Counted from the stretch's first letter, positions 17,335-54,363 are shown. The stretch: 64,000 nt of DNA from an uncultured Acidobacteriota bacterium (GCA_963742245.1 CAVULG010000007.1:1003834-1067833), one strand, 5' to 3'. Program-made: numbers and translations. Notes: a model not told the origin generated them from the letters alone.

Positions 17335-17350
17335 GTGGTCGGGATTGTAA

Positions 17351-17455: not shown

Positions 17456-17457
17456 CG

Positions 17458-18891
<1,434 letters not shown>

Positions 18892-20680: not shown

Positions 20681-20693
20681 AGGAGAGACGCCC

Positions 20694-23604: not shown

Positions 23605-24087
23605 GTGGCCGCCCTCGATCCCGGAACGAAGTTCCCGTCGATCGCGCTCCGGGACGCCGGCGGCGCGCCGGCCGCCATCCCGAGCGGCGAGTCGCTCGTC
23701 GCGGTCTTCAAGACGACCTGCCCGACCTGCGAGCTCACCTGGCCGTACCTCGAACGGCTCCGCGCGATCGGCGACGGACGCGGCCTTCCGATTCTCGCCG
23801 TCTCCCAGGACGATCCGAAGAAGTCGCGGGAGTTCGCGGCGCGCCTGAACACGCGGCTCGACACCGCCTACGACCCGAGTCCCTACCCCGCTTCCGACGC
23901 GCTCGGCCTGACGAACGTCCCGACGATCTTCCGCATCGGCGCCGACGGGGTCGTTGCCGAAACGATCATCGGGTTCGACCGCGAGCGCATGCGCGCGCTC
24001 GCCCGGCGCTCCGCCGCGCACGCCGGCGTTCCCGAAGTCGAAATCTTCCCCCGCGGCGACCCGGCGCCCGCGTTCAAACCCGGTTGA
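23605..24087 (+). CDS. Thioredoxin-fold protein (TlpA/AhpC-TSA-like redoxin) with a CPTC active site
   Basis: It contains FKTTCPTCELTWPYL together with VPTIF, the cis-Pro loop region typical of thioredoxin-like proteins. Confidence 0.7.
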   Translation: MAALDPGTKFPSIALRDAGGAPAAIPSGESLVAVFKTTCPTCELTWPYLERLRAIGDGRGLPILAVSQDDPKKSREFAARLNTRLDTAYDPSPYPASDALGLTNVPTIFRIGADGVVAETIIGFDRERMRALARRSAAHAGVPEVEIFPRGDPAPAFKPG

Positions 24088-24127
24088 GGATCCCGCAACG
24101 CCGGCAGGTAGCCGGAGAAGGCGCCCC

Positions 24128-29400: not shown

Positions 29401-30286
29401 CGACCCGCAGGGCAACGGAATCCTCGAGCCCGCCGAGACGGCGGTCATCAACCCGACCTGGCAAAACAACGACATCGTCGACCTCGCGTTGTCCGGAGTC
29501 CTCGGAGTCTTCACCGGCCTCGCCGGAGGCAGCTACGTCATCGACGAGGGCACGGCAAACTACGGAGTCCTCGCTCCGGGAGCCCAGGGCGACTGCCTCT
29601 CAAACGCGGACTGCCATGTCGTGACCGTCAGCGCGCCCGGCGCTCGCCCAGCTCTGCATTGGGACGCGTTTCTCGACGAAACGCCCGGGGCGGATCCGGC
29701 GCACACCTGGCAGCTCCACGTAGGCGCGAGCTTTGCCGACGTCCCTCCGGCGCATCCCTTCTATGCCGCGGTCGAGACGGTGCTCCACCATGGAGTGACC
29801 AACGGTTGCACGCCGACGGACTACTGTCCGGCTTCCGGCGTGACGCGCGCCCAGATGGCCGTGCTGCTGTTGAGAGCGCGTTTCGGGCCCCAGTTCGTTC
29901 CGCCGCCGGCAAGCGGAATGCGATTCGCCGACGTTCCTGCCGACGCGTTCGCCGCGGCCTGGATCGAGTACCTCGCGCAGATCGGCGTAACGGCCGGCTG
30001 CGGCAACGGCAACTATTGCCCGAGCACGGTCGTCAACCGCGCGCAGATGGCGGTCTTCCTCCTCCGCACCGCCTTCATCACCCCACCGAATTGCACTGGC
30101 CTGTTCGGAGACGTACCGTGTCCGGACGGCTTCGCCGTCAACTACATCGAGCACCTGCACACCTTGGGCGTCACCGGCGGATGTAACGCCGTTCCGCTGC
30201 TTTACTGCCCGGGCAATCCCAACAAACGCGGGCAGATGGCGGTCTTCTTGACGCGCACATTCGGTCTCACACTCTACGGGCCGTAG
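26480..30286 (+). CDS. 1268-aa secreted FG-GAP/VCBS-repeat protein with Ig-like modules, a conserved middle domain and a triple Cys-containing SLH-like C-terminal cassette
   Basis: It has a signal peptide and many FG-GAP-type repeats (ADFD.DG..D....G....LLGDGTGGF). Two Ig-like modules follow (YRWTGPGGF...GVYSV). The C-terminal cassette spans about 29732-30283. Confidence 0.9.
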   Translation: MKQIRRVFLSLAVLLLSMPLRAQCTGCTNLSFGPAVPWYPSGDASDQFAAADFDQDGVLDVALPGPQGGFILYFGDGRGTFRSHAVVPSDGVPAQFVAAGDFDGNGFPDLVGSNFGTFAILLADGIGGFAPSTTGSNGRGRVLVADFDRDGRVDLLTAENCLLGEGDGTLSPPLPLAGGPYSMLIASGDFNGDAVLDVAVSNITEVHLLLGDGTGGFTPGTMFPAPPSFTEVRNGAAADLTGDGNLDLALAIDASGGGPSSVQVLVGDGTGQLSPGASLPLPYSFSSIVAADFDGSGAIDVLTTGGHLFAGIGGGALGPPVNYGYSAWGLAPGDFNRDGITDAAAAMQGVGILLGQVSGGLAAPIPRPYFYDVSGAGIADVTGDGVPDVVASVAAFALNNSISIFPGTGGAGIGPRVDYALPSPASAITVAELKEDGVSDVAASTGGQIALLLWDGANGFLPPTFLDTATGASGVAAGLFDADAHQDLISVGSGLDLRLGDGTGGFEDPVVVSDVLAHALLALDFNGDGKTDIAAFGGAIHLFLGHGDGTFDAEVLSQLPGFTDVYAAADFDGDGFLDLAFGGVGEIPVIFGDGGGGFSAPLLVPAGNLSGYINPAAGDVDGDGDADLLVAAREEDLAVVITGNGDGTFEIPSSWRVSRYPARPALGDLDLDGKLDLVTLGDYVSVLRNSQCEARRLGTPTDVSKCAAPSLPFPIQPAVGVYDDGGNVITCHTEAVSASIVPGTGTPGALLAGTTDVAYVAGVATYADLSIGPVGAGYVLEFSHPVLGVTRSRSFTVGEPPQAPQATNSGPFCQGQTLNLYATTVPGAVYRWTGPGGFSSTAQSPSIPAAGAGAAGVYSVIALVDGCASAATDTTVAMLPPTPGPAIRGALQICAGSRLLLHVDDGAFHHTWFHNGVPIEGATGPEYSAAEMSVGDTGEYTASSADATGCTTAVSDPVTVTLDFCHAEAHALSVDPQGNGILEPAETAVINPTWQNNDIVDLALSGVLGVFTGLAGGSYVIDEGTANYGVLAPGAQGDCLSNADCHVVTVSAPGARPALHWDAFLDETPGADPAHTWQLHVGASFADVPPAHPFYAAVETVLHHGVTNGCTPTDYCPASGVTRAQMAVLLLRARFGPQFVPPPASGMRFADVPADAFAAAWIEYLAQIGVTAGCGNGNYCPSTVVNRAQMAVFLLRTAFITPPNCTGLFGDVPCPDGFAVNYIEHLHTLGVTGGCNAVPLLYCPGNPNKRGQMAVFLTRTFGLTLYGP

Positions 30287-30295
30287 AATCGGCCC

Positions 30296-31381
30296 GTGCG
30301 CTACCGCTACTCCGACTTCCCGCTCGATCTCCTCCGCGAGCTCCTGACGTACCAGGAGCTCGTCAAGCTCTTCCTGCAGCTCGTCCTCCAGGCGGGAGGC
30401 GACGTCGAAGAGGCGCTGCGGTGGATGAAGTACCTCCAGGATCGCGGCATGATCGACGAGAACATCGACCTCGACGAGTTCCGGCAGGAGCTTCAGAAGA
30501 ACGAGATGGTCGAGGACCGCGGCGGGCAGCTCGCGCTCTCGGCCGCCGGCGAGCGGCGCATCCGGCGTTCCGCCCTCGAGGAGATATTCACCTCGCTCAC
30601 GAAGTCGGGATCCGGCTACCACGCGGTGCCGCGCGCGGGCGGGGGCGGCGAGCTGCTGCCCGAGACGCGGCCCTACGAGTTCGGCGACAACCCGAGCGCG
30701 ATCGACGGCGTCCGGTCGATCGGCAACGCCGTGCGCCGAGACGCCGCCGACATCGCCCTGAAGGCCGACGACTTCGAAGTGCACGAGGAGGAGCACCTGA
30801 CCTCCTGCGCGACCGTCCTTGCGATCGACATCTCGCACTCGATGATCCTCTACGGCGAGGACCGCTTCACGCCGGCCAAGAAGGTCGCTTTAGCGATGGT
30901 CGAGCTGATCCAGTCCAAGTACCCGAAGGACTCGATCGACGTGCTGCTCTTCGGCGACGACGCCAGGCGCGTCCCAATCTCCGAGATCTCGAAGACCCAG
31001 GTCGGGCCGTTCCACACCAACACCAAGGCCGGTCTCGCGCTCGCGCGCAAGCTCCTCGTCCATCGCAAGAACCCCAACAAGCAGGTCCTCCTCATCACCG
31101 ACGGCAAGCCCTCGGCAATCTGGGAGCGCGGCCGGCTCTACAAGAACCCGTTCGGGCTGGATCTGAAGATCGTCAACCGCACGCTCGAAGAGGCCGACGC
31201 CTGCCGGCGCGACGGAATCACGATCACGACCTTCATGATCGCGACCGACACCTATCTCGTCGAGTTCGTGGACAAGCTGACGAAGATCAACCGCGGCCGC
31301 GCGTACTACGCGTCGCCGTACAACCTGGCGGAGTTTCTGTTTACGGACTACATCCGGAACCGGAAGAAGTTCCTGCACTGA
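30296..31381 (+). CDS. Cytoplasmic VWA-domain protein with an intact MIDAS motif, the predicted partner of the AAA+ ATPase at 24128
   Basis: The MIDAS motif is VLAIDISHSM (DxSxS), followed by ...LITDGKPSA. There is no signal peptide. The GTG start lies 9 nt after the FG-GAP gene stop. Confidence 0.85.
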   Translation: MRYRYSDFPLDLLRELLTYQELVKLFLQLVLQAGGDVEEALRWMKYLQDRGMIDENIDLDEFRQELQKNEMVEDRGGQLALSAAGERRIRRSALEEIFTSLTKSGSGYHAVPRAGGGGELLPETRPYEFGDNPSAIDGVRSIGNAVRRDAADIALKADDFEVHEEEHLTSCATVLAIDISHSMILYGEDRFTPAKKVALAMVELIQSKYPKDSIDVLLFGDDARRVPISEISKTQVGPFHTNTKAGLALARKLLVHRKNPNKQVLLITDGKPSAIWERGRLYKNPFGLDLKIVNRTLEEADACRRDGITITTFMIATDTYLVEFVDKLTKINRGRAYYASPYNLAEFLFTDYIRNRKKFLH

Positions 31382-31518: not shown

Positions 31519-33645
31519 GTGAAGTTTTGCAACGCGGTCCTGTGTCTCGTCTTCGCCGCGCTCGCCGGTCCCGCTCTCGGTCAGTCACCCCCGCTCCAGC
31601 CCGAGTTCCAGGTCTCGCAGGGCACGCTCTACTACCAATACTCCTACGGGGTGGCGATCGATCGCACCGGCCAATTCGTCGTCTGCTGGTCGAGCTATAC
31701 GGAAACGGATTCCAACTACGACGTGCTGGGCCGCCTCTACGACCCGGCCGGCGCGCCGGTCGGGGGCGAGTTCGAGATCGACGCGTCCACGGCCAATCAG
31801 ATCGGCGGGGACGTCGCCAAGGATGCGTCGGGAGCGTTCGTCGTCGTGTGGCAGGACGCGGACACCCAGCTCCAGGCCCGGCGTTTCGACGCCGACGGGA
31901 CGCCGCGGGGCCCGGCGTTTCCGGTGACGACTTCGACGCTCCCGGTCTCGGACTCCTACGTCGCGTCCGACGCCTCGGGCCGCTTCGCGGTGGCCTGGAC
32001 GCGGCTCGACCCGAGCTCGTCCTTCGACGTGGTCGCGCGGCTCTTCGACTCCGCGGGCGCCCCGCTGACCGGTGAGCTGCCGATCAACTCCTACACGACG
32101 GGGTCGCAGCGCACGCGCGGCGTGGGAATGTCCAACAACCATTTCGTCCTGGTTTGGGGAGGCGACGGCTTCGGAGGCCCCGGCGTCTGGACCCGCAGTT
32201 TCGTCGCCAATGGCACGCCGTTGACGGACGACCTCCAGGTCAACCAGGGATCCCTGCTCTTCAACCCCCCTGAAGCGAGTGTTGCGATGAGTGAGCCCGG
32301 AACGTTCGTGGTGGTCTGGGACGGCCTCGTCGCTGCGAACACCCTCGGGGTCTTCGGGCGGCGCTACGATCTCGCCGGCCTGCCGATCGACGACCAGTTC
32401 ATGGTCAACACGACCTACACGACGGGCTACCAGGGATCCTCTCGCATCGCGGCAGACCGCCACGGCAACTTCATCGTCTCCTGGACCGGGAGGCCGAGCG
32501 ACGGCGACGCCGCCGGAGTTCTCGCACGCACGTACGACCGCTTCGGCGTCGCGCAGAGCGCGGACTTCGTCGTCAACACGACGGCGACCGGCTATCAGTA
32601 CAACTCGCAGGTCGCGCTCAACGAGGCGGGCACGTTCGTCGTCACCTGGTCATCTCCCGATGCGTCTTACTACGGCGTGGTCGGGCGCCGGAGCGCCGCG
32701 CGGGCCGCGCCGGAGATCACGATCCAGAACGCCGTGCTCCGGCAGGGAAGCACGGATTCCGTAATCGAACCCGGCGACGCGGTGCTGCTCCGGACCGCGT
32801 GGGCCAACGAATCGACGACTCCACTCGGTCTCACCGGAGCCGCCGCCGATTTCTCCGGCCCCCCCGGGGCGACGTACACCACGATCGTGGCCACGGCCGA
32901 CTACGGAGCGATCGCGGCTTCGTCGACCGGCACCTGTCTCGACGGCGCCGGCAACTGCTATGCCGTCGAAGTCTCGGCCCCCGCGGTGCGCCCGGCCCAG
33001 CACTGGGACACGAAGCTCCAGGAGAGTCTCTCGATCGGCATGCCTCACACGTGGGTCCTTCACATTGGCGAGAGCTTTCCTGACGTCCCGACCAGCCACA
33101 TCTTCTATGCGTTCATCGAAACGCTCTTCCACAACGGCATCACCGGCGGCTGCGCGGGAGGCGACTACTGCCCGGGCAACCCGGTCACGCGCGCCCAGAT
33201 GGCCGTCTTCCTGCTCAAGTCCAAGTTCGGCGAAGCGCACGTTCCGCTCCCTTGCACGGGGACCGTCTTCACCGACGTCCCTTGCACCGGCGGGCCGTTC
33301 GATCCGTGGATCGAGGAGCTCGCCGCCTTGCAGATCACGGGAGGCTGCGGCGGAGGGCTCTACTGCCCCAACAACCCCGTTAACCGGCAGCAGATGTCCG
33401 TGTTCCTGCTCAAAACCCTCGAGGGCGCCGCCTATGTGCCTCCGCCCTGCACCGACCCGCCGCCGTTCGACGACGTGCCGTGCCAGAACGGGTTCTCGAT
33501 CTGGATCAACGAGCTCGCCTCCCGCGCCATCACGGGAGGCTGTTCCGTGACGCCGCCTCTCTACTGTCCGGCCAATCCCAACAACCGCGGCCAGATGGCG
33601 GTCTTCCTGACCAAGACTTTCGGACTCGTTCTTTACGGGGGTTGA
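31519..33645 (+). CDS. Paralog A: signal peptide, seven 'EFQVN' modules, middle domain and triple Cys-SLH-like cassette
   Basis: The GTG start at 31519 is preceded by GCAGGAGG. The signal peptide is VKFCNAVLCLVFAALAGPALGQ. Seven units of about 50 aa show a recurring [ED]F.VN...T...Q....VA.d..G.FVV.W........g...R.[FY]d..G.P pattern. The cassette spans 33073-33642. Confidence 0.85.
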   Translation: MKFCNAVLCLVFAALAGPALGQSPPLQPEFQVSQGTLYYQYSYGVAIDRTGQFVVCWSSYTETDSNYDVLGRLYDPAGAPVGGEFEIDASTANQIGGDVAKDASGAFVVVWQDADTQLQARRFDADGTPRGPAFPVTTSTLPVSDSYVASDASGRFAVAWTRLDPSSSFDVVARLFDSAGAPLTGELPINSYTTGSQRTRGVGMSNNHFVLVWGGDGFGGPGVWTRSFVANGTPLTDDLQVNQGSLLFNPPEASVAMSEPGTFVVVWDGLVAANTLGVFGRRYDLAGLPIDDQFMVNTTYTTGYQGSSRIAADRHGNFIVSWTGRPSDGDAAGVLARTYDRFGVAQSADFVVNTTATGYQYNSQVALNEAGTFVVTWSSPDASYYGVVGRRSAARAAPEITIQNAVLRQGSTDSVIEPGDAVLLRTAWANESTTPLGLTGAAADFSGPPGATYTTIVATADYGAIAASSTGTCLDGAGNCYAVEVSAPAVRPAQHWDTKLQESLSIGMPHTWVLHIGESFPDVPTSHIFYAFIETLFHNGITGGCAGGDYCPGNPVTRAQMAVFLLKSKFGEAHVPLPCTGTVFTDVPCTGGPFDPWIEELAALQITGGCGGGLYCPNNPVNRQQMSVFLLKTLEGAAYVPPPCTDPPPFDDVPCQNGFSIWINELASRAITGGCSVTPPLYCPANPNNRGQMAVFLTKTFGLVLYGG

Positions 33646-33649
33646 GAAG

Positions 33650-35782
33650 ATGATGCGAACAGCTCGCCCGATAGCCCTCCAAGGGTTCGCGGTCTTGCTC
33701 CTGGCAACGCTCGCCCTCGCCCCACCCGCCCTCGCCCAAACGCCGCCGATGCTTCCGGAGTTCCAGGTCAACACGCAGACCGACGACTACCAGGAGTGCA
33801 ACGGCGTGGCGGTGGACAAGACCGGCCGTTTCGTCGTGGCCTGGTCGGGATACGACGCGACGGCGCAGAGCGACCTGGCGTTCGGGCGCCTCTACGACCA
33901 GTCCGGAGCTCCCGAGACCGGGGAGTTTCCGTTCGGCACTCCTTCCGGAGTGCCCAACCAGTCCGAAGCGACCGTCGCCAAGGACGCCTCCGGGAGGTTC
34001 GTCGCGGTGTGGCAACAGGGCGACGACGTCTTCGCGCGTCGGTTCGACGTCGACGGCACACCGCTCGGCGACGCGTTCCCGGTCAATACGTCGACCCTGA
34101 GCGCCGATTCGCCGCAGGTGGACTCCGACGATTCCGGCAATTTCGCCATCGTCTGGACGGCCACCGGCACGAGCGACGAAGTCGCGGCACGGATCTTCGA
34201 CAGCTCCGGAGCCGCGGTCACGGACGAGTTCATCGCGAATTCCTATACGACCAACATCCAGGATGCCGGGGGCATTGCGGCATACGGCAGCGGCTTCGTC
34301 GTTACGTGGGGCGGCCAGGGCGCGGGCGGTCCCGGGATCTTCGCGCGAGCCTTCGACGCCGCAGGGGCCCCGCTCGGCGGCGACTTCAAGGTCAACGAGG
34401 GGCTTCTCCTCAACGCGGTGACCGGGAGCGACGTAGCCGTGGACTCCGTCGGCAATTTCGTCGTCGTCTGGGCAGGGTTCGTGGCCCCGAGCTACGAAGG
34501 CATCTTCGCGCGGCGCTACAACCCGGCGGGCTTTCCGTTGGGCGGAGACTTCCCGGTCAGCGAGGCGGCCACCGACACCCAGGGCGGCGCCCACGTGAAG
34601 TCCGACCACGCGGGCAACTTCATCGTGGCCTGGACGCACCAGGACGGCGACGGCGACGGGTCCGGCATCGTCGCGCGGCGCTACAACCGCTTCGGACAGC
34701 CGGTGACACCGGCGTTCGTCGTCAACGAGGGGACGGACGAGGATCAGTACCACGCCAACGTCGCGCTGAATGACGCCGGTGATTTCGTCGTGACCTGGAG
34801 CTCGCCGGACGCCGATTACTACGGCACCTTCGGGCGGCGCAGCGGCGTGGGCGCTTCGTCGCCGATCACCGTGGCGACCGATACCGTCGGCAACCTGAGC
34901 TCCGTGCTCGAGCCGGGCGAGTCCGTGCGGGTGGAAACAGCCTGGGTCAACCATACGGATTCCACGGTCGCCGTGACCGGAACCGCGACCGGCGTCTCTG
35001 GACCGGCGAGCGCGAGCGTCACGCTCGACGACGCGGCGGCCGACTACGGAATGATCACGGCGGACTCCATCGGACCCTGCAACGGGACGGGAGACTGCTA
35101 CGCGATCACCGTGTCGGATCCCGCCGTGCGCCCGGTTCAGCACTGGGACGTGCTGCTGCACGAGACCCTGAGCGTCGGCGTGCCCCACACCTGGGTGCTT
35201 CACGTCGGCGAAAGTTTCCCCGACGTGCCGACCGACAACATCTTCTATGCCTTCATCGAGACCCTCTTCCACAACGGCGTGACCGGAGGCTGCTTCGGCG
35301 GCGGCTACTGCCCGACCAATCCCGTGACCCGCGCCCAGATGGCCGTGTTCCTCCTCAAGGCCAAGTTCGGCTCTGCCCACATCCCTCCGCCCTGCACCGG
35401 GCTCGTCTTCGGCGACGTCCCCTGCACGGGCAGCCCCTTCGATCCCTGGATCGAGGAGCTCGCGCGCCTCGGGGTCACGGGTGGCTGCGGAGGCGGTTTC
35501 TATTGCCCCGGCAACAACGTGACGCGTCAGCAGATGGCGGTGTTCCTGCTCAAGACACTGGAGGGATCGGCGTATGTCCCTCCGCCCTGCGTCGTACCGC
35601 AGTTCGACGACGTCCCCTGCGACAACGGGTTCGCCATCTGGATCAACGAGCTCTACGCCCGCGGAATCACGGGCGGTTGCTCGGCCATGCCCCCTCTGTA
35701 CTGCCCAACCAATCCCAACAACCGCGGCCAGATGGCCGCCTTCCTCTCCAACATGTTCGGACTCGCGCTCTATGGGGGTTGA
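33650..35782 (+). CDS. Paralog B, same architecture as paralog A
   Basis: It starts 4 nt after paralog A. It has a signal peptide (...ALAPPALAQ), seven modules, and a cassette ending SNMFGLALYGG. Confidence 0.85.
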   Translation: MMRTARPIALQGFAVLLLATLALAPPALAQTPPMLPEFQVNTQTDDYQECNGVAVDKTGRFVVAWSGYDATAQSDLAFGRLYDQSGAPETGEFPFGTPSGVPNQSEATVAKDASGRFVAVWQQGDDVFARRFDVDGTPLGDAFPVNTSTLSADSPQVDSDDSGNFAIVWTATGTSDEVAARIFDSSGAAVTDEFIANSYTTNIQDAGGIAAYGSGFVVTWGGQGAGGPGIFARAFDAAGAPLGGDFKVNEGLLLNAVTGSDVAVDSVGNFVVVWAGFVAPSYEGIFARRYNPAGFPLGGDFPVSEAATDTQGGAHVKSDHAGNFIVAWTHQDGDGDGSGIVARRYNRFGQPVTPAFVVNEGTDEDQYHANVALNDAGDFVVTWSSPDADYYGTFGRRSGVGASSPITVATDTVGNLSSVLEPGESVRVETAWVNHTDSTVAVTGTATGVSGPASASVTLDDAAADYGMITADSIGPCNGTGDCYAITVSDPAVRPVQHWDVLLHETLSVGVPHTWVLHVGESFPDVPTDNIFYAFIETLFHNGVTGGCFGGGYCPTNPVTRAQMAVFLLKAKFGSAHIPPPCTGLVFGDVPCTGSPFDPWIEELARLGVTGGCGGGFYCPGNNVTRQQMAVFLLKTLEGSAYVPPPCVVPQFDDVPCDNGFAIWINELYARGITGGCSAMPPLYCPTNPNNRGQMAAFLSNMFGLALYGG

Positions 35783-35800
35783 TGAACGAGGAGGTCCGTT

Positions 35801-36006
35801 GTGAAGTCTCTCAGCCTCTCGATCCTCGCTCTCGCCTGCTGCTTTGCCCTGCCGTCAGCGGCTCTCGGACAAATCCCGGCCTTCCTCCCCGAGTTCCAGG
35901 TCAACACGGCTGCGCCGGACTACATCACCTTCAAAACGTCGCGATGGGACACTACGGCGAGTTCGTCGTGGTCTGGACCGAAAAATTCCTGAGGAGGGAC
36001 GCGTGA
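35801..36006 (+). pseudogene. 5' remnant of a paralog (signal peptide plus first module) with an internal frameshift
   Basis: The frame from 35801 reads VKSLSLSILALACCFALPSAALGQIPAFLPEFQVNTAAPDY. The rest of the module (HLQNVAMGHYGEFVVVWTEK) continues in another frame and stops at 36006, overlapping the GTG start of paralog C. Confidence 0.5.
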
Positions 36007-38165
36007 AGATCGGCGCCCGATTCGCGGTTCTCGTGTGCACGGGACTTGTCGTCGCCGAAGGCGCTCGCGCCCAGGTCCCGGTCTTCCTGCCCGAGTTCCC
36101 GATCGTCGCGAACGAAACGGTGTACCGAGCCTTGAACGGCATCGTCATGAACCCGGGAGGTGAATTCGTCGTGGTCTGGGGACAGGACAACGGAGGGGGC
36201 AGCGCGTACGACGTGATGGGCCGACGCTTCGATGGCCTGACGGTACCCCTCGGCGACCCCGCCCCGTTGACCGGCGCAACCAGCGGTCGGCAATGCTGCG
36301 CGTCCGTCGCGAAGAACGCCTCGGGCACATTCGTCCTCGTGTGGAACGACGTCGGCGACGACCTCCGCGGCCGGCGATTCGAGGCGGACGGCACGCCGCA
36401 AGGCGGCAGCTTCCAGGTCAATTCGTCGAGCGCCCCCGGCACTTCTTACTTCGGCCTTCCCGATGTCGCTCTGGACGCCTCCGGCAACTTCGTCGTGACC
36501 TGGAGTTTGTTCGGCGCGGGTGGCGACTTCAGCGTAATGGCCAGGCGCTTCGACCGCGCCGGAGACCCGCTCGGCGACGACTTCGTGGTCAACCAGTACA
36601 CCACCGGCTACCAGTCCGGCTCGCGAGTGGCTGCGTCGTCCGGAGGATTCGTCGTGACCTGGATCGGCGAGGGCAACGGCACGACGCATGGTGTTTTCGG
36701 CCGGCTGTACGACGCCGCGGGAGACCCCGTGACGAACGATTTCCCGGTTCATGCAACTCCCCCCGTCTCTCCCGGCCTTCCGGGCGTGGCGATGAATGCG
36801 GCCGGCGACTTCGTCGTCGCGTGGCATGACAACGGGGACTACACGTCCAGCACCGTGCAGGCACGACGGTGGAACGCGTCCGGAGCTCCGGCGAGCGGGG
36901 TGTTTCCCGTCAGCGGCGGGTCGCCCGGCGTCTTCAACTCGGGTCCGCACTTGGCCTCGGATTCCGCCGGCAACTTCCTGGTCGTCTGGACCCGGTCGAT
37001 CCAGGCTCTCGGTGAGGGGATTTCCACGCCCGTGGGGCGCTTCTTCGGAGCCGACGGGAGCCTGGGCGGCAACGAGTTCCAGATCAATGAAGTCACCACC
37101 GGATCCCAGTCCAATCCGCTGGTCTCCTTGAACGACGACGGAGCCTTCGTCGTGGCGTTTTTGAGCAGTCCCAGCTACCTGGTGTACGAGAACAAGGGCC
37201 GGAAGAGCGGGTTGCGCTCGAGTCCGGTGATCGTGGTCGACCCGAACGCGGGCGTCTCGTCGCCGAACGGTGGGGGCAACGGCATCCTCGAGCCTGGAGA
37301 GACGGTGGTCCCGCGGACCGCATGGACCAACGACACCGCGGCAGGAACGACCGTATCGGGCACCGCCGTCGGATTCACCGGCCCTCCGGGCGCCGCCTAT
37401 GCCATCCTCGACAGCACATCCTCGTACGGGACGATACCGGCCGGAACGACCACCACATGCGTCGGCGGCGTGGATTGCTATTCGATCTCCGTCTCGGATC
37501 CGACCGTACGGCCATCTCCCCACTGGGACGCCCGCCTCCAGGAGCTGCTGAGCGTGGGTGTGCCTCACACCTGGAACCTCCACGTGGGCGGGAGCTTCGC
37601 CGACGTGCCTACCGGGAACCTCTTCTATCCGTTCATCGAAAACCTCTTTCACAACAACGTCACTGCAGGCTGTGCGGGAGGCGGTTACTGCCCCAACAAT
37701 GCGGTCACGCGCGCGCAGATGGCGGTGTTTCTCCTGAAGGCAAGGTTCGGCGCCGCGCACGTGCCGCCGACCTGCACCGGAACCGTGTTCGATGACGTTC
37801 CCTGTTCGGGCGGCCCCTTCGACCCGTGGATCGAGGAGCTCGCGGCGCTCAACGTCACGGGCGGTTGTGGCGGCGGCAACTACTGCCCCAACAACCCGGT
37901 CACCCGTCAGCAGATGGCCGTGTTCCTTTTGAGGACTCTCAAGGGCTCCGGATACCTCCCGCCCGATTGCTCGGGCATCTTCGACGACGTTCCGTGTACG
38001 CCGGGAGAGGGGTTCTCCGACTGGATCGAGGAGCTCGCCAACCGCGGCATCACCGGCGGCTGCTCCGTCACCCCGCCCCTCTACTGCCCGACCAATCCGA
38101 ACAACCGGGGTCAGATGGCCGTCTTCCTGACCAAGACGTTTGGCCTCGTGCTCTACGGGGGTTGA
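36003..38165 (+). CDS. Paralog C, same architecture with more divergent modules
   Basis: The GTG start at 36003 is preceded by GAGGAGG. The signal peptide is VKIGARFAVLVCTGLVVAEGARAQ. It has seven modules and a cassette ending TKTFGLVLYGG. Confidence 0.85.
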   Translation: MKIGARFAVLVCTGLVVAEGARAQVPVFLPEFPIVANETVYRALNGIVMNPGGEFVVVWGQDNGGGSAYDVMGRRFDGLTVPLGDPAPLTGATSGRQCCASVAKNASGTFVLVWNDVGDDLRGRRFEADGTPQGGSFQVNSSSAPGTSYFGLPDVALDASGNFVVTWSLFGAGGDFSVMARRFDRAGDPLGDDFVVNQYTTGYQSGSRVAASSGGFVVTWIGEGNGTTHGVFGRLYDAAGDPVTNDFPVHATPPVSPGLPGVAMNAAGDFVVAWHDNGDYTSSTVQARRWNASGAPASGVFPVSGGSPGVFNSGPHLASDSAGNFLVVWTRSIQALGEGISTPVGRFFGADGSLGGNEFQINEVTTGSQSNPLVSLNDDGAFVVAFLSSPSYLVYENKGRKSGLRSSPVIVVDPNAGVSSPNGGGNGILEPGETVVPRTAWTNDTAAGTTVSGTAVGFTGPPGAAYAILDSTSSYGTIPAGTTTTCVGGVDCYSISVSDPTVRPSPHWDARLQELLSVGVPHTWNLHVGGSFADVPTGNLFYPFIENLFHNNVTAGCAGGGYCPNNAVTRAQMAVFLLKARFGAAHVPPTCTGTVFDDVPCSGGPFDPWIEELAALNVTGGCGGGNYCPNNPVTRQQMAVFLLRTLKGSGYLPPDCSGIFDDVPCTPGEGFSDWIEELANRGITGGCSVTPPLYCPTNPNNRGQMAVFLTKTFGLVLYGG

Positions 38166-38283
38166 TCCGGTCTGACCCGGCCGGGCCGGAAAAATCGCTT
38201 CTCTCAATATCAGTGCCCAACGAGGCCTTTCTCCGTGTAATAGTCCGCCCTGTCCCTGAGTACAGTTCGATCCAGGAGGATTC

Positions 38284-40453
38284 ATGAGGAAGCTGGTTCT
38301 CGCTTCGCTCGGCGCCTTCGCGATCGCGACGTTCGCCGCCGCCCAGGCTCCGGTCTTCGGCCCCGAGTTCCAGGTCAACACGTACACGACCAACCATCAG
38401 TATGGCGCGACAGTCGCGAACGTCGGACCGACAGGTAATTTCGTCGTCGCTTGGAACGACCAGGGCCAGGTCGACGGCGACCTAGGCGGAATCCGCGCTC
38501 GATTGTTCGACGTGACGGGCTCTCCGCTGGGCGGGGAGTTCCCGGTCAATGCGATCGGCACGAACGACCAGGGGCTCGCCCGCGTCGGCTCGAACGCCAA
38601 CGGCGACTTCGTCGTGACGTGGACGGACAACGGCACCTCGCCGACCGGTGCTTACCAGATTTACGCGCGGCGGTTCAGCTCCACCGGGACCCCCCAGGGC
38701 GGCAACATTGCAGTCAACACCTACACGACCGGTGACCAGAGACTGTCGAGCGTCGCGCTCGACGCGGCGGGCAACTTCGTCGTGGTCTGGCGGAGCGTTG
38801 GACAAGATGGACCGGATCGAGGGGTATTCGGGCAGCTGTTCGATAACGCGGGCGCGAAGGTTGGTGCGGAGTTCCAGGTCAACCAGTTCACGACCGGCCA
38901 TCAGCAAAACCAGCGCGTCGTGAGGCGGCCGAGCGGGGAGTTCATGGTCGTCTGGCAGAGCCCGCAGGACGTCCAGGCTACCGCCATCATGGCGCGTCGA
39001 TACCTGGCAAATGGCACACCCGTGGCCGGCGAGTTCCAGGTCAATACGCGGGAGGCGGGATACCAATACCTTCCCGACGCGGCGTACTTCGGAGACGGCA
39101 GCGCGATCATCGTGTGGACGAGCTACGCCCAGGACGGATCGCACGGCGGCGTCTACGGACAGCGCCTCGATGCATCCGGAGCCAGCTCGGGCCCGAGTTC
39201 AACGTCAACACGTACACGACCAACTTCCAGGGGCGCCCTTCGGTGGCGACGGGGCCCGATGGGGACTTCGCCGTCATCTGGCAGAGCGACCTGCAGGATG
39301 GCGACAATCTCGGGGTCGGGGCCCAGCAGTTCGACTCGACCGGCAAGCGGCTGGGCGTCGAGCTCCCGGTCAATGAATTCACTACGGGTCTGCAGGGAGG
39401 GGCCGCCGTCGCGGCCCAGCCGAACGGACAGTACGTCGCGGTCTGGGACAGCGTGAACGACGGCGACCTCAGCAGCGTCTCGGCGCGGCTGGCCGGCTTC
39501 CCGAAGGTCGAGCCGATGACGGTCGACGTGCTCCATCCCGGGCTCGTCGCGGGCGGCTCGAACGGCAACGGCGTCATGGAGCCGGACGAGGCGGTCAGCG
39601 TCGAGCCGGCGTACACGAACAAGTCCGACGACCCGCTTCCGCTGACCGGCACCGCCACAAACCTGCGCGGGACTGCCCGGGCCGACCTACAGCATTCTCG
39701 ACGGCTCCGCCGACTACGGGACCATCGCACCGGGCGCGACCAACGATTGCATCGGCCTTACGATCGAGTGCTTTTCGATGATGGTCTCCGGAACGCGGCC
39801 CGCGCAGCACTGGGACGCGGCCTTCGACGAGACGTTCTCCTACGAGGGCTTCACCCGCATCGCCGCGCTCCACGTCGGCGGCAGCTTCCCCGACGTGCCG
39901 CAGAACGCGCTTCTATCCGTTCATCGAGAACCTCTTCCACAACGGCGTGACGGGCGGCTGCTTCGGAGGCGGATACTGCCCCGGCAACAACGTCACGCGC
40001 GCCCAGATGGCGGTCTTTCTCCTCAAGTCCCGCTGGGGCGCCGGCTTCATTCCCGCGCCGGCGACGGGTACGGCCTTCATCGACGTGCCCGCCGGTCGAC
40101 CCTTTCGCGCCGTGGATCGAGGAGCTCGTCCGCGAGGGCGTCACGGCCGGCTGCGGCGGCGGCATGTACTGCCCGGGCAACAACCGGTCACGCGCCAGCA
40201 GATGGCGATCTTCCTGCTCAAGACGAAGTACGGCGCGGATTACGTGCCGCCTGCGGGCACGGGAATCTTCGGCGACGTCGCCGGGTGCCCCGGCCTCGTC
40301 TGCGACCACATCGAGGCGCTCTACAACCAGGGCATCACCGGCGGCTGCCAGGTCAACCCGGTTCTGCTTTACTGCCCCACCAATCCGAACCTGCGCCAGC
40401 AGATGGCCGTCTTCCTCGTGAAGACGTTCGGGCTGCAACTGTACGGTGAATAG
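38284..40453 (+). pseudogene. Paralog D, whose reading frame is broken about 5 times in its 3' half (a true pseudogene or a consensus artefact)
   Basis: It is intact from 38284 to about 39183 (signal peptide MRKLVLASLGAFAIATFAAAQA plus modules 1-5). The homologous sequence then continues in other frames (ORFs 39114.., 39778.., 39947.., 40164..), with switches near 39183, 39670, 39905, 40090 and 40185. It ends VKTFGLQLYGE. Confidence 0.8.
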
Positions 40454-40480
40454 AGGGCGCCAGCTCGATCGGCGCGTTTC

Positions 40481-42652
40481 ATGAGAAAGCCCTGACGTTC
40501 GTCGACCGGTCTTCACGCTCGCGCGCTCGCGGCGTGCGTGAGGCACCCGTGATCGGCCCGGAGTTCCAGGTCAACACCACCACGGCCGGCATGCAGTACG
40601 GCGCCGGCGGTCGCCGATATCGGGCCCGACTCCAACTTCGTGATCTGTGGTCGGCGGGCGGAGGACAGGACGGCGATCAGACCTCGGCATCTTCGGGCGG
40701 CATGTTCGATGCGACGGGCACCCCTATCGGCGGCGAGATTCCAGTCAACGCCGTGCCCGCCGGGTGACCAGGACCTGATGGAGTCCAGTCGAACTCGGCC
40801 GGGAATTTCGTCGTGGCATGGACGGTACGCGAGCGGAGCGCCCGGTTACGAGATCCGCGCGCGCCGGTTCGACCCCTCGGGCAGCGCCCCAGGGCGTCGA
40901 AATCGTCGTCAACACGTATACGAGCGAGGTCCAGGGTCGTACCCGGACGTCGCGCATCGACAACACCGGCAATTTCGTGGTCGTGTGGACGAGCGGGCAG
41001 GGCCACGACGGCGACGGCTACGGTGTCTTCGGGCCGCCGGTACGACAACGAACGGAGATCCGATCGGGGGGGATTTCAGCTCAACGAGCAGACGACGGGT
41101 TCCCAGACTCTGCCCCGAATTGCGATGGCCCCCGCCGGAGACTTCATCGTCGCGTGGCAGAGCCCGCAGGATCTCTCGGACGGCGGAGTCGTCGCCCGGC
41201 GCTTCGCGTCGAACGGCAGCCCTCTCGGCGGCGAGTTCCTCGTCAATCGAACCGAGCAGCTGGAGCAGGGCGAGCCGGACGTCGCACTGGATCCGGCGGG
41301 AAACTCGATCATCGTGTGGACGAGCTACGGGCAGGACGGCGACGGACCCGGTGTCTACGGCCAGCGCCTCGATCCTTCTGGAAGCAAGTCGGTCCGGAGT
41401 TCAACGTCAACACCGTCACCACCTCCTTCCAGGGCCAGCCTCGGGTCGCCGCGTCTCCGAGCCCGGATCGCTCCGTCGTCGCATACCAGAGCAACAGCGG
41501 GGCCGATCCGGGAATAGCGAACCAGGCATTTGACCAGACGGGCCGGCGTTTCATGGAGGAGCTGCCGGTGCAGTCCTACGGAACCGGGGCCCAGATCCAG
41601 CCCGCGATCGCCGCACAGCCGAACGGCCAGGTCGTCATCGCATGGAGCAGCGAAGCCGTCGACGGGTCGGAGTTCGGCATCGCGGCGCGCGTCGGAGGGT
41701 ATCCGCGCGTCGAGCTCACGCGCGTCGACGTGGCCCACTCGATCGGGGAGTCTCCGAACGGAGCGGCGAACAACAACGGCGTGCTGGAGGTCGGAGAGCA
41801 CGTGAACGTCGAGCCCGCGTACCGGAACCTCGGAACCGCGCCGCTCGCCTTGACCGAAACCCTGACGGGCATCCTGGGCGACACGGGGCCGACGTATACG
41901 ATCGACGACGACACCGCGGACTACGCCACCCTCGATCCGAATGAGCTCGACGACTGCTTCGGGAACGCGGGAGGCTGCTTCACGATCGGAGCCGTCGGGG
42001 AGCGCCCCGAAGCGCAACACGCGGACATCCAGCTCTCCCTGGAGCTGTCGTACCACGCCTTCGAGAGGGCGGCGACCGTGCACATCGGAGAGAGCTTCGC
42101 CGACGTACCGGTCACCAACCCCTTCTATGCGTTCGTCGAGAACCTTTTCCACAACGAGGTCACGGGCGGCTGTGCGGGCGGCGGCTACTGCCCCGGCAAC
42201 ATCGTCACCCGCGCGCAGATGGCGGTTTTCCTGATGAAATCGCGCTGGGGGGCCGGATTCATCCCCGCCCCGGCCACGGGAACCGCGTTTCCGGACGTTT
42301 CCGCGGACAATCCCTTCGCCCCGTGGATCGAGGAACTCGTGCGGGAGGGCATCACAGCGGGCTGCGGCGCCGGCCTCTACTGCCCGAACAATCCCGTGAC
42401 CCGCCAGCAGATGGCCGTCTTCCTGCTCAAGACGAAGAACGGAGCGGATTACATCCCGCCGAACGGCATCGGCCTGTTCGACGACGTCGAGCCCTGCCCG
42501 GGGATCGTCTGCAACTTCATCGAGGAGCTCTACAACCAGAACGTCACCGGCGGGTGCAACCCGAGTCCCCTTTCGTATTGCCCGGGCAATCCGTGGTTCG
42601 CCAGCAGATGGCCGTCTTCCTCGTGAAAACGTTCGGGCTCCAGCTCAACTGA
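40481..42652 (+). pseudogene. Paralog E, with many frame breaks in its 5' half and one near the 3' end (a true pseudogene or a consensus artefact)
   Basis: ATG at 40481 (MRK..) is followed by a degraded signal peptide. Modules are recognisable across three frames up to about 41385. The sequence is then intact from 41390 to about 42590 (ORF 40818..42626 frame). A last switch precedes ...VRQQMAVFLVKTFGLQLN. Confidence 0.75.
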
Positions 42653-42740: not shown

Positions 42741-44471
42741 ATGCGTTCCCGCATTTCTGCGCTCGTTGCCGCCGCCGTGCTGGCCGCCGCCGCTCCCGCG
42801 TCCGCCGCATTTCACGAGATCCACGTCAAGGAGGTCTTCGCGGGCAGCCAGGCCCACCCGAACGCCCAGTACGTCCTTCTCCAGGCCTACAGCCTCGGCC
42901 AGAGCGCGGTCACCGGCCACAGTGTGACGACGTTCGACATCCTTGGCGCGTCGACGGGGACGTTCACCTTCCTTGGCCCCGTCGGCAACGGGGCCGACCA
43001 GATGACGATCTTCGTGGCGACCGCCGAGGCCGCCACGATCTTCGGCATCACCGCCGACCTGGCGATGACCGCCGTGCTCAATCCCAACGGCGGCAAGGTG
43101 TGCTGGGACGGCGCCACCATCGACAGCTGCTTCGTTTGGGGCGGATACGTCGGCTCCGACGTCGGAACGCCCTACAACGTGCCGGGCGGCCTCATCCGCG
43201 GGTATGCCGCGCAACGCCGCCTCGACATCTGCGGCGTCGACGACGAGCTCGAAGCCTGCGACGACACCGACGACAGCGCCAACGACTGGATCACTGTCGT
43301 CCCGCAGCCCATCAAGAACAACGGCACGCCCGGCCAGACGCCGCCGGCGACCTGCGGCAACAACACGGTCGAGGGTCTCGAGAGCTGCGACGACGGCGAC
43401 ACCGAGGGCGGCGACGGCTGCTCCGCCGTCTGCAAGCTCGAGCCCGCCGACCTCATCCCTTCAACGCTCGCCGTCGACATGGTGGACGTCTCGCCCGACA
43501 TCTCCAACATCAACGGCGTCTTCGAACCGGGCGAGACCGTTCGCATCCAACCGACCTGGACTTACACCGGCACGCCCGACGTCGTCCTGACGGGACAGGT
43601 GACCAACTTCACCGGTCCGACGACGGTCTCGCCGCCGAACCCCCGGTACAGGGTTTCCGACGGAGCCGCCGAATACGGGGACGTGTCGATGGGCGACTTC
43701 GTCTCCTGCGCCACGGGGTCCAACTGCTACCTCATCCACGCCGATGCGCTGGGTGCGCGCCCGGCCCAGCACTGGGACGCGACGATCGACGAGATCATGG
43801 ACGCCACGCAGTTCGCTCTCGGCGCCCTGCCCAACCACGGCGTCCAGACTTGGACCCTGCATCTCGGCAACAGCTTCGCCGACGTGCCATCGGACCTTCC
43901 CACGCCGCACCCCTTCTACGCATTCATCGAGAATCTCTTCCACAACGAAATCACCGGAGGCTGCGCAGGCGGCAACTACTGCCCCGCCAATCCCGTCACA
44001 CGCGCGCAGATGGCCGTGTTCCTGCTCAAGGCGAGCCTCGGCGCGGACTACCTTCCCCCGCCCTGCACCGGAACGGTGTTCGGGGACGTGCTCTGCCTCC
44101 CCGGCAACACCTTCGATTCCTGGATCGAAGACCTCGCTGACCGCGGCATCACGAGCGGATGCGGGAACGGCAACTACTGCCCCGGCAACCCGGTGACCCG
44201 GGCACAGATGGCGGTGTTTCTCCTGAGGGCCCTCGAAGGCTCCGCGTACGACCCGCCGGACTGCACGCAGCTCTTCGAAGACGTGCCCTGCACGCCAGGG
44301 GCGGGATTTTCCGACTGGATCAGCGAGCTCTTCGAGCGCGAGATCACGGGCGGCTGCTCGTCGGTGCCGCTGCTTTACTGCCCGGACAACCCGAACAACC
44401 GCGGTCAGATGGCGGTCTTTCTCGTGAAGACGTTCGGGCTGCTGCTCTACGGTTTGCCGGCCGCGAACTGA
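42741..44471 (+). CDS. Secreted protein with an LTD-like N-terminal domain, a Cys-rich CGN..E.CDDG repeat, the middle domain and the triple Cys-SLH-like cassette
   Basis: It has a signal peptide (...AAAPASAA). FHEIHVKEVFAGS...AQYVLLQ is lamin-tail-domain-like. CGNNTVEGLESCDDGDTEGGDGCSAVCKLE resembles the myxococcal cysteine-rich repeat. The cassette ends VKTFGLLLYGLPAAN. Confidence 0.85.
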   Translation: MRSRISALVAAAVLAAAAPASAAFHEIHVKEVFAGSQAHPNAQYVLLQAYSLGQSAVTGHSVTTFDILGASTGTFTFLGPVGNGADQMTIFVATAEAATIFGITADLAMTAVLNPNGGKVCWDGATIDSCFVWGGYVGSDVGTPYNVPGGLIRGYAAQRRLDICGVDDELEACDDTDDSANDWITVVPQPIKNNGTPGQTPPATCGNNTVEGLESCDDGDTEGGDGCSAVCKLEPADLIPSTLAVDMVDVSPDISNINGVFEPGETVRIQPTWTYTGTPDVVLTGQVTNFTGPTTVSPPNPRYRVSDGAAEYGDVSMGDFVSCATGSNCYLIHADALGARPAQHWDATIDEIMDATQFALGALPNHGVQTWTLHLGNSFADVPSDLPTPHPFYAFIENLFHNEITGGCAGGNYCPANPVTRAQMAVFLLKASLGADYLPPPCTGTVFGDVLCLPGNTFDSWIEDLADRGITSGCGNGNYCPGNPVTRAQMAVFLLRALEGSAYDPPDCTQLFEDVPCTPGAGFSDWISELFEREITGGCSSVPLLYCPDNPNNRGQMAVFLVKTFGLLLYGLPAAN

Positions 44472-44526: not shown

Positions 44527-44994
44527 GTGGGGACGCTTCTGGCCGCCGCCGCAGGGCTGATTGCGCTCGGCGGCGCCGCCGTCCTGGTCCCTCGCCTCCT
44601 CATCACGCGGGCGCAGGATCGCCTCGCGCGGCGCCTCCTCGAAGGCGCTCCCGACGGCTTCCGCCTCCTGACCCGGGCCGAACGGGTCAATGGTCCGTAC
44701 CGTCGTACACCCGGGATTCTCGGTCTGACCGGAAACGCCGTGGTCTTCGAGGGTCTCTTCGGCGAGAACGAAACCCTGCCGACCTCCCGCATCGAGAAAA
44801 TCGCCACAGGCCAGCGCCTCGCCTCCGGGCGGAGGCTCCTGCGGCTCGAGGTCCTGCGTTTCACGAGCACCGGCGGCGAGAAACTCGAGTTCGTCCTGCC
44901 ACGCGCGTCGGCCGGCGCGTGGCGGAGCCACCTCGGCCTCTGGGCCGGGGCGCAGCGGCTGGCCGCGGCCGACGAGGTCACGCCGGGCCGCTAG
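44527..44994 (+). CDS. Hypothetical membrane-anchored protein (155 aa)
   Basis: It has a GTG start and an N-terminal TM helix. The start codon lies inside a 13-bp perfect stem (44497-44509 pairing with 44520-44532), so the start and the expression are uncertain. Confidence 0.4.
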   Translation: MGTLLAAAAGLIALGGAAVLVPRLLITRAQDRLARRLLEGAPDGFRLLTRAERVNGPYRRTPGILGLTGNAVVFEGLFGENETLPTSRIEKIATGQRLASGRRLLRLEVLRFTSTGGEKLEFVLPRASAGAWRSHLGLWAGAQRLAAADEVTPGR

Positions 44995-45020
44995 GATTCC
45001 TTCGCTATAGTCAGCCGGCC

Positions 45021-45971
45021 ATGAAACCTCGCTTCGCCGCTTTTCTCGCCGCCGCGTTCGGAGCGGCGGCCACGATGAGTGCCCAGACGCCGGCGGAGCC
45101 GCGTCTCCTCGCTCCCGGCATCGTCTCGACCGGCGACATCGAGTTCAGCCCCGCGCTCACGCCCGACGGGAAGACGCTCTACTTCACCAAGGGCAGCCCT
45201 GGCATGAAGCGCGCGATGTGGATCGTCGTTTCGAGGCTCCAGAACGGTGCATGGACGGCGCCGGAGATCGCACCGTTCTCGGGGCGTTACAACGACATCG
45301 ATCCGACGATCTCTCCCGACGGGAAGCGCCTGTTCTTCGCGTCGACGCGTCCCACGGAAGGCACCGCACCGAAGAAGGACTTCGACCTCTGGGTCATGGA
45401 GAAGACGGCCTCCGGCTGGAGTGAGCCGCGGAACCTCGGCTCCCCCGTCAACAGCTCCGGCTCGGAAACGACGACGTCGGTCGCTTCCGACGGCACGCTC
45501 TACATCGGGGCATCCGGCCGGGAAGGAGGCCCGCGGACGGGGCGAAGGCTCTACCGTGCGCGGTGGGCGAATGGCGGCTACGAAGCTCCGGAGGCGCTGC
45601 TCGCTCCCGTGGACGGAGGCGAGGAGGACTCCAACCAATACGTCTCTCCCGACGGCCGCTTCATGATCTTCATGTCTCGCCGGCAGGGAGCGGACGCGCG
45701 TCTCTACGTCACATACCTCGAGAGCGGCGCCTGGTCGAGCCCGGCTCCGATCGACGCGCCATGGAACGCCGCCTACGCGCCGTACACTCCGCTGCTCTCC
45801 CCTGACGGGAAGACCTTCTACTTCACGAGCCAGAGAGGCGCCTTCGACGAGGCTCCGTTCGCTCCAATGCCGTACGATCGGTTCCTGAAGGCGATCCGCG
45901 CTCCCGGCAACGGACTCGCCGACATCTACGAGCTTCCCGTCGAGGCCCTCGCGCTGCGCGCCCCGCGCTAG
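45021..45971 (+). CDS. Periplasmic TolB-like / PD40 (WD40-like) beta-propeller repeat protein
   Basis: It has a signal peptide and repeated [SP]PDGK.L[YF]F.S motifs, which is the PD40 repeat. Confidence 0.8.
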   Translation: MKPRFAAFLAAAFGAAATMSAQTPAEPRLLAPGIVSTGDIEFSPALTPDGKTLYFTKGSPGMKRAMWIVVSRLQNGAWTAPEIAPFSGRYNDIDPTISPDGKRLFFASTRPTEGTAPKKDFDLWVMEKTASGWSEPRNLGSPVNSSGSETTTSVASDGTLYIGASGREGGPRTGRRLYRARWANGGYEAPEALLAPVDGGEEDSNQYVSPDGRFMIFMSRRQGADARLYVTYLESGAWSSPAPIDAPWNAAYAPYTPLLSPDGKTFYFTSQRGAFDEAPFAPMPYDRFLKAIRAPGNGLADIYELPVEALALRAPR

Positions 45972-47659: not shown

Positions 47660-47686
47660 GTGTATACCCTCCTTCAGGAGGATCCG

Positions 47687-54324: not shown

Positions 54325-54363
54325 GCGGCCTCCTCCCGAAACGGCCCGCTGCCGATCCGGCGA

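Follow-up and report, generated by a model that had tools for sequence, protein, structure and literature searches.

A tandem array of genes for SLH-bearing proteins with a predicted, unnamed seven-bladed beta-propeller head in an uncultured Acidobacteriota bacterium

We analyzed a 64-kb stretch of DNA (the window, ~68% G+C) from an uncultured Acidobacteriota bacterium. Positions 31519-42652 hold a tandem array of five paralogous genes, here termed A to E, all in the same direction on the + strand, plus the 5' stub of a sixth copy. Every copy from A to E encodes an N-terminal head of seven repeated units, for which structure prediction supports a seven-bladed beta-propeller, and ends in an immunoglobulin-like (Ig-like) domain followed by three S-layer homology (SLH) repeats. 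The head is a new, very large sequence family of known fold, carried on a known anchor, and the tandem multigene arrangement is of a familiar evolutionary type. We favor, with moderate confidence, the interpretation that the locus is a birth-and-death repertoire of Sec-exported, wall-tethered head-spacer-anchor proteins with putative binding heads.

Paralogs A (31519-33645, 708 amino acids [aa], GTG start), B (33650-35782, 710 aa) and C (36003-38165, 720 aa from a GTG) are uninterrupted open reading frames (ORFs), and each starts with a typical Sec signal peptide. As judged from the ORF, the structure models described below and Pfam, the signal peptide of A is encoded at 31519-31581, the propeller at 31582-32700, the Ig-like beta-sandwich at ~32710-33066 and the three SLH repeats at ~33070-33642; B and C have the same architecture. 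Paralogs D (38284-40453) and E (~40481-42652) are full length, interrupted by indels. In A, B and C the signal peptide is followed by Q-x-P-x-[LF]-x-P-E-F and then by seven units of ~50-57 aa. The anchor motif F[VA]V.W of these units occurs exactly seven times in each of the three proteins, ~53 aa apart. A hidden Markov model (HMM) of a single blade, run against the six-frame translation of the window, found seven blades each in A to D and six in E, with E-values per blade of 1e-7 to 1e-24. The first blade of E is readable by eye as 'PEFQVNTTTAGMQY', broken by indels. Identity from blade to blade inside one protein is 33-40% (A to D), and the most canonical 'EFQVNTYTT' blades are found in D.

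In all six frames of the window, no blade was detected outside A-E except for a weak match at 35932-35982, between B and C, which marks the remnant of the sixth copy (35801-35992, + strand). The GTG start of this stub lies at 35801, behind a Shine-Dalgarno sequence (AGGAGG, 35789-35794), and opens a 63-codon ORF for a signal peptide plus 'IPAFLPEFQVNTAAPDY'. Past one frameshift (near 35925) it reads 'VAMGHYGEFVVVWTEK', so that blade 1 begins, and it is cut off just 5' of the start of C. An earlier note on this DNA, made from the sequence alone, had described five paralogs with a remnant and seven units in A, B, C and D, and both counts are confirmed by the ORFs, the blade HMM, the anchors in A to C and the reading of the stub. 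The gaps of 4-118 nucleotides (nt) that it gave apply to A-B (4 nt), C-D (118 nt) and D-E (~27 nt); the B-C gap measures 220 nt because the stub sits inside it. The A-Q cleavage context ascribed to every copy occurs in B, C and D, and G-Q is found in A and the stub. The same note overlooked that the seven units span only residues ~22-394, while residues ~395-708 form the separate Ig-like and three-SLH module, and that neighboring genes share this module. A scan for promoters and terminators gave no promoter and fewer terminator-like sites than in shuffled sequences, and an exact-sequence look-up of protein B returned no record.

The AlphaFold2 model of the seven-unit block, calculated from an alignment of 78 sequences, is a single closed all-beta domain with a mean pLDDT of 93.4 and a pTM of 0.93. 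DSSP assigned seven sets of three long strands and one short strand to it. In this model a short strand is formed by the N-terminal 'PEFQV' (residues 9-10), and the last unit has only three strands before the chain stops, a pattern that would fit closure of the ring ('velcro') by the N-terminal strand. A Foldseek search against the PDB gave 532 matches at E<=1e-3, and the best 50 of these, which were listed, are propellers only. The best full-length matches are seven-bladed: the PL42 lyase 7esk (TMq 0.63), CV39L (0.64) and PHL (0.56-0.59), with at most 15% identity in the alignments. The model and the structural matches support a seven-bladed beta-propeller as the fold of the block.

In sequence, the block belongs to a family that has gone without a name. 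In the 78-sequence alignment, the blade consensus reads EFQVNTYTTxxQxxPxVAxDxxGNFVVVWxSxxQDGSxxGVFGQRFDxxGxPxG, seven times over. A word-index search gave more than 1,520 matches, mostly 33-42% identical over the whole domain, and a complete HMM search through 1.84 billion cluster representatives (clusters at 50% identity) with the family profile gave 68,458 matches at E<=1e-3 and 25,714 at E<=1e-30. The highest-ranked matches (P0121-P0270) are giants, 2,000-7,900 aa long, in which up to ~29 stretches match, and family members elsewhere are fused to a dockerin, a type IX secretion system (T9SS) sorting tail, FG-GAP or SLH. Those that carry names are called 'hypothetical', 'beta strand repeat-containing' or 'dockerin/VCBS repeat-containing' proteins, and their hosts are Isosphaera (Planctomycetota), Desulfobulbaceae (Desulfobacterota), Falsihalocynthiibacter (Rhodobacterales, Alphaproteobacteria) and Bacteroidota. 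The earlier note had also pointed to similar repeats in large exoproteins from other phyla, which these numbers and these four named groups bear out. Stand-alone members of ~415 aa also exist, such as P0038 and P0094 (L018, 8001-10652), which consist of a signal peptide and the propeller only; each adjoins a second gene of like size (403-417 aa).

No model of Pfam-A (2025) or NCBIfam (June 2026) matched residues 22-394 of A, B or C at E<=1, and the block is likewise uncovered in the 78 relatives of the alignment and in the best-scoring profile matches, where scattered sub-threshold signals were all that appeared. FG-GAP, VCBS, SBBP, NHL, Kelch, WD40, PD40, BNR/Asp-box and GH43-like models all stayed below their curated cut-offs; a weak NHL match was seen in one of the 78 relatives. 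Matches to CopC in 17 of the 78, like other odd Pfam matches, were rejected as summed weak repeat signals: in the proteins that were scanned individually no single stretch passes, and we assumed that the cases among the 78 relatives are alike. Against PDB sequences the family profile found nothing at E<=10, and a single-sequence search returned only MarR at E 0.63, which was taken as chance. Strings of the blade motif gave chance matches only in the searchable literature, and the known lineages listed in a paper on beta-propeller amplification (PMC9218822) include none that matches the motif. The unnamed seven-bladed propeller proposed in the earlier note is thus supported by the model, the Foldseek matches and the empty Pfam and NCBIfam searches. 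The nearest named models are two of lipoproteins, the Leptospira LIC12048 family (NF038383; E 5e-6, over ~130 residues of a 1441-position model) and a PDIAV-motif lipoprotein (NF053835; E ~3e-3). Both matches are weak, with scores far under the curated cut-offs (24 vs 700 bits), and both models are whole-protein equivalogs and not domain definitions. From this sequence similarity, these lipoproteins may contain related blades; the literature on LIC12048 consists of vaccine or localization screens without functional data.

The C-terminal cassette was readily identified. The Pfam model of the SLH domain (PF00395; PS51272 in PROSITE) scores 39.8, 30.3 and 38.8 bits in A, B and C, respectively, with a cut-off of 20.8. 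In an AlphaFold2 model from a 77-sequence alignment (pLDDT 92.6), a beta-sandwich of nine strands precedes six helices, arranged as three pairs. Foldseek matched the helical part to the SLH domains of Sap (3pyw, TMt 0.80, rmsd 3.3), to 6bt4 (TMt 0.81) and to complexes of P. alvei SpaA-SLH with pyruvylated ManNAc. The SLH triplet is therefore predicted to fold as a pseudo-threefold spindle of three-helix bundles. Ligand binding by SLH domains needs the Arg of a TRAE motif and the second Gly of a GIIxG motif (PMC6081394). All 15 SLH repeats of A to E retain the Arg (as TRAQ, (T/N)RQQ or NRGQ/LRQQ), and R164, R229 and R296 are invariant in the 77 cassettes. At the GIIxG-type position, G150 and G280 of repeats 1 and 3 are likewise invariant, and repeat 2 has only the near-invariant glycines G215 and G217. 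The Glu of TRAE is replaced by Gln here, and the same TRAQ variant is present in SLH3 of SpaA (PMC6081394). The anchor thus has the SLH profile, fold and ligand-residue features that were tested, with the Gly of repeat 2 only near-invariant. The cassette was found in more than 5,000 proteins, several of which are named 'S-layer homology domain-containing protein [Thermoanaerobaculia bacterium]'.

Two further features of the cassette were observed. In the Ig-like domain (32701-33070; residues ~395-517 of A), H101, D103, E108 and H121 are invariant in the 77 cassettes, within the pattern HWD..L.E.L....HTW.LH.G.SF.DVP; as read from the alignment, they could form a metal site or an interface with the SLH spindle. 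Each SLH repeat has an invariant pair of Cys residues (GGCxxGxYCP), which together with the PPxC/DVPC motifs suggests disulfides in the SLH repeats. SLH triplets under a functional head are also known from Firmicutes, as in B. anthracis Sap, P. alvei SpaA and SlhA and C. thermocellum SLAP. In contrast to these, the host of the array is a diderm, the head is an unnamed propeller, the repeats carry the Cys pair and the PPxC/DVPC motifs, and the triplet is always preceded by the Ig-like domain. Gene conversion between cassettes was considered and left no sign, as paralogous cassettes are 67-70% identical at the aa level and orthologous ones 72%. A pyruvyl transferase did not turn up in a Pfam survey of ~25 ORFs of the window.

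A genome scan with protein B, which picks up close relatives only, found relatives only in metagenome-assembled genomes (MAGs) of Acidobacteriota. One locus (L001) is syntenic with the window: genes for a MoxR-like AAA protein, an FG-GAP-SLH protein and a VWA protein (2801-9883) are followed by five intact propeller-SLH genes. Between the window and this locus, the VWA proteins are 94% identical, the FG-GAP-SLH proteins 47% and the propeller proteins 52-72%. Two overlapping loci on CAWAKL010000011.1 (L002, 3000-23100, and L009, 1-20139) hold at least 12 tandem propeller-SLH genes; this run, in MAG MFD02360.bin.3.432, is uninterrupted, and some of its members are frameshifted. Other MAGs have one, two, three or four to five copies. 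The survey of copy number for which the earlier note had asked therefore gives a range of 1 to at least 12 among related MAGs. In a rough neighbor-joining tree the copies fall into two deep clades, A/B/C with one L001 copy and D/E with four L001 copies, and C is the most divergent member of the former. By this tree, the split between the clades is older than these genomes, and copies have been gained and lost separately in different lineages. A loss has left its direct trace in the stub between B and C. The expansion is thus old, as the earlier note had claimed, the two deep clades having orthologs in other MAGs. That it is also being maintained holds in part only, since the sixth copy survives as no more than a stub and the assembled D and E contain frameshifts.

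As assembled, neither D nor E is an intact ORF. We corrected both by frameshift-aware alignment of intact orthologs to the DNA. D needed five single-base corrections (two deletions and three insertions, near 39184, 39669, 39904, 40097 and 40182), after which it has no in-frame stop, keeps every motif and is 72% identical to the L001 orthologs across its first 296 residues. For E, at least seven single-base corrections were required, and up to ~15 with another guide sequence; its lone apparent in-frame stop (near 40750) vanishes under an alternative reading with two indels. Phase variation as the cause of the frameshifts was rejected as unlikely, since the indel sites lie outside homopolymers and short repeats. 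Ordinary neighboring genes are also frameshifted relative to their L001 orthologs (the MoxR-like AAA gene near 24499 and a gene for a solute-binding protein at 22890-22988), and the nearest relatives are long-read MAGs with similar breaks. For these reasons the indels in D and E are probably, by a modest lean, consensus errors rather than marks of true pseudogenes. A further example from the window is an ORF at 59875-62808, which joins the C-terminal part of KdpA to KdpB; Pfam found no KdpA fragment upstream of 59875 on the chosen ORFs, so that this example rests on the fused ORF. The density of indels is uneven, with none in A to C or the FG-GAP gene (~10 kb), five in D and 7-15 in E, a pattern that uniform sequencing error and simple decay both fail to explain. 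D and E may lie in a region of strain heterogeneity or low coverage.

These breaks bear on the question whether the array, or part of it, could be an assembly artefact or a graveyard of pseudogenes without current function. The at least 12 single-base indels of D and E together, the stub, and the frameshifts in the nearest long-read MAGs speak for such an origin. However, the copies of the window are at most 75% identical in DNA, and this only in their 3' halves, which excludes assembly duplication and leaves no room for collapsed or duplicated reads, and the tandem layout is also present in independent MAGs. Moreover, A, B and C are intact, as are the five genes of the syntenic L001 array, the corrected D is free of stops with all motifs present, and the frameshifted neighbors and the KdpA-KdpB fusion point to consensus errors and not to decay. 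We therefore regard an artefact or graveyard as very unlikely.

We then asked where the copies differ. Positions of A were labeled by their place in the blade, using the strands of the AlphaFold2 model, and identity was measured among close copies. In the A/B clade, it is 0.40 in the loops between strands 1 and 2 ('NTYTTxxQ') and strands 3 and 4 ('QDGS'), which we refer to as same-face loops, compared to 0.60 in the loops of the opposite face and 0.63 in the strands. The corresponding values are 0.31, 0.62 and 0.58 in the C clade and 0.69, 0.80 and 0.81 in the D clade. Divergence between close copies is thus biased to one face of the propeller. Family-wide, the 'NTYTTxxQ' and 'QDGS' loops hold the most conserved polar and aromatic residues, and A, B and C have largely lost this consensus. 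All positions conserved at 80% or more recur in each blade and none is blade-specific, which argues against a single catalytic center.

This pattern has to be weighed together with the structural matches, which allow for the proposal that the propellers are wall-anchored enzymes, polysaccharide lyases or glycosidases, and the array a set of carbohydrate-active enzymes of differing specificities. The best Foldseek match is the PL42 lyase FoRham1 (L-rhamnose-alpha-1,4-D-glucuronate lyase; 7esn/7esk, E 1e-10, TMq 0.61-0.63), which is seven-bladed and of similar size; sialidases match as well, a few relatives show weak GH43-type Pfam matches, and SLH-anchored glycanases are familiar from Firmicutes (for example PMC6556019). 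But FoRham1, from a fungus, has one active site, whereas the array head is only 12-13% identical to it, has no PL42 sequence match and shows none of the blade-specific residues that such a site would need, its strongly conserved positions repeating in every blade. In addition, the TM-score of the lyase is no better than those of the propeller lectins, the profile search of PDB sequences was empty, and few of the conserved loop motifs survive in A, B and C. An enzymatic role is thus improbable, and less likely than the periplasmic wall-associated role considered below.

The interpretation of a wall-tethered repertoire can be put as follows. The head would be a seven-bladed propeller serving as a non-enzymatic, lectin- or adhesin-like ligand-binding module, and the face made up of the strand 1-strand 2 ('NTYTTxxQ') and strand 3-strand 4 ('QDGS') loops would be its working surface. 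The Ig-like beta-sandwich would act as a spacer. By analogy to solved SLH trimers, the SLH triplet would bind a pyruvylated, peptidoglycan-linked glycan non-covalently through its groove Arg and Gly. The array would evolve by tandem duplication, divergence and loss, and the copies would thereby present different binding faces, so that paralogs may differ in specificity. In this interpretation, the binding function, the class of ligand and the cellular compartment are inferred, while the analysis itself showed the architecture, the predicted fold, the size of the family, the identity of the SLH repeats, the variation in copy number and the bias of divergence to one face. An extracellular role in binding would agree with the dockerin and T9SS tails and the giant multi-propeller architectures of other family members.

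Comparison with known propellers helps to place the heads. The PLL/PHL and CV39L lectins of Photorhabdus and Chromobacterium have the same number of blades and the same fold (TMq 0.56-0.64), and both they and the array heads are built from ~50-aa blades with one motif per blade, as for multivalent binding. In contrast, no sequence relation was found between them in the PDB search at E<=10, and structural alignment gives 11-14% identity; the lectins are soluble and stand-alone, while the array heads would be wall-anchored, with a putative lectin-like role. A second parallel is the surface-layer YVTN propeller of Methanosarcina (Jing et al. 2002, cited in PMC8559796), which is also seven-bladed and an envelope protein with many paralogs. 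By this literature description, on which the comparison is based, it differs in the domain of life, the repeat family and the mode of anchoring. Finally, the FG-GAP/VCBS (26480-30286), SBBP (51178-54363, - strand) and PD40 (44919-45971) propeller repeats of the window are also exported, with similar blade length and genomic habit, and some of them likewise sit on the SLH cassette; A, B and C, in contrast, gave no hmmscan match to any of these families at E<=1, and their motif differs.

Several observations weigh against a repertoire of binding proteins at the wall. The top Foldseek match is an enzyme. With regard to the face-biased divergence, the same-face assignment was derived from the strand order of a four-stranded antiparallel blade, and loops often vary more than strands in general, so that the argument for a face-specific effect lies solely in how much less the opposite-face loops vary. 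Conservation of the supposed binding loops in the broad family fits a structural role or ion binding as well as it fits a ligand common to all members. Stand-alone members of the family lie among unrelated housekeeping genes, with no recurrent partner beyond the like-sized neighbor, and D and E might be dead genes. With their Sec signal and SLH repeats in a diderm host, the proteins could stay periplasmic, and nothing in the sequences of A to E explains passage through the outer membrane.

The last of these points deserves closer attention. Acidobacteriota are diderms and have an outer membrane. The signal in A to E is of the Sec type only, with no lipobox, beta-barrel or sorting tail. Because of the outer membrane and the lack of a feature for passing it, a periplasmic wall-associated role is a serious rival: the proteins would be periplasmic peptidoglycan-associated components, or subunits of an S-layer type, and the paralogs structural variants and not recognition modules. 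According to papers on OmpM and SlpA, SLH domains are periplasmic in the diderms studied so far, and SLH trimers are the classic S-layer anchor (PMC8559796). The window itself contains at least nine SLH proteins. On the other hand, a copy number ranging from 1 to at least 12, fast face-biased divergence and gene loss are atypical of housekeeping envelope parts, and the VWA neighbor is 94% conserved, compared to 47-72% for the SLH-bearing genes. The dockerin or T9SS tails borne by the propeller in other proteins place it in extracellular contexts, and with lattice-forming proteins the array proteins have only the type of anchor in common. Overall, we consider such a structural role unlikely, though not as improbable as an enzymatic one. 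The earlier note had proposed a diversifying surface-recognition family. This is plausible insofar as variation is biased to one face and the SLH repeats argue for attachment to the wall; as for the surface, an SLH anchor in a diderm phylum does not decide between it and the periplasm.

The genes around the array share its anchor. Upstream, a gene at 26480-30286 (+ strand), with a syntenic ortholog in L001, encodes an FG-GAP/VCBS and Ig head, identified by Pfam, on the same Ig-like and three-SLH cassette, 48% identical to that of B. Directly downstream, at 42741-44471 (+ strand), Pfam and NCBIfam identified a cysteine-rich acidic repeat head (TIGR02232/DUF4215), again on this cassette. Further downstream are another SLH protein (47660-48436, + strand; Pfam) and a protein with DUF7948, SBBP repeats, TIG and SLH (51178-54363, - strand), the SLH terminus of which is 38-44% identical to the cassette. 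At least nine genes of the window are SLH-bearing. As differing heads share the cassette on both sides, the array is part of a larger system of many heads on one anchor.

MoxR-like AAA and VWA genes usually adjoin. Here, the MoxR-like gene (AAA_5; 23912-25693, broken near 24499) and the VWA gene (30296-31381) flank the FG-GAP-SLH gene, and an ORF for a HpcH/HpaI aldolase-like protein (25432-26454) lies between the MoxR-like and FG-GAP-SLH genes. More distant parts of the window contain an acetate/fatty-acid block at 12596-21968, with acetyl-CoA synthetase, parts of an ABC transporter, malate synthase and isocitrate lyase as well as a ScfR-type regulator (HTH + M78 + ScfRs), and an ORF at 4424-5689 with a DndB (DNA-sulfur-modification-associated) domain (E 4e-14).

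Beyond this locus, we put forward a broader and clearly more tentative reading, namely that the 'NTYTT' propeller represents a major, so far uncharted family, with at least 68,000 clusters, whose members are modules for the multivalent binding of glycans or surfaces. In Thermoanaerobaculia-like Acidobacteriota it would be mounted on a disulfide-braced SLH cassette as a fast-turnover repertoire of envelope receptors. The seven pairs of polar and aromatic loops of each domain would then form binding sites, and the binding face would diversify between copies and strains. The compact intact set (A to C here and five genes in L001) suits testing by glycan arrays and crystallography.

The finding fills a gap; it does not challenge current concepts or open a new category. 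Tens of thousands of protein clusters contain a domain for which there has been no family model, structure or literature. Besides soil Acidobacteriota, its hosts include Planctomycetota, Desulfobacterota, Proteobacteria and Bacteroidota, and it occurs in proteins that rank among the largest of bacteria; given the confident fold model and the clear blade consensus, the family can be easily defined. We know of no study of SLH display in this diderm phylum. The window indicates that a triple-SLH cassette serves some Acidobacteriota as a common module for displaying many different heads, which poses a question of envelope topology for an abundant, poorly cultured soil phylum. If the broader reading is true, this array would give bacteria their own version of a variable lectin repertoire.

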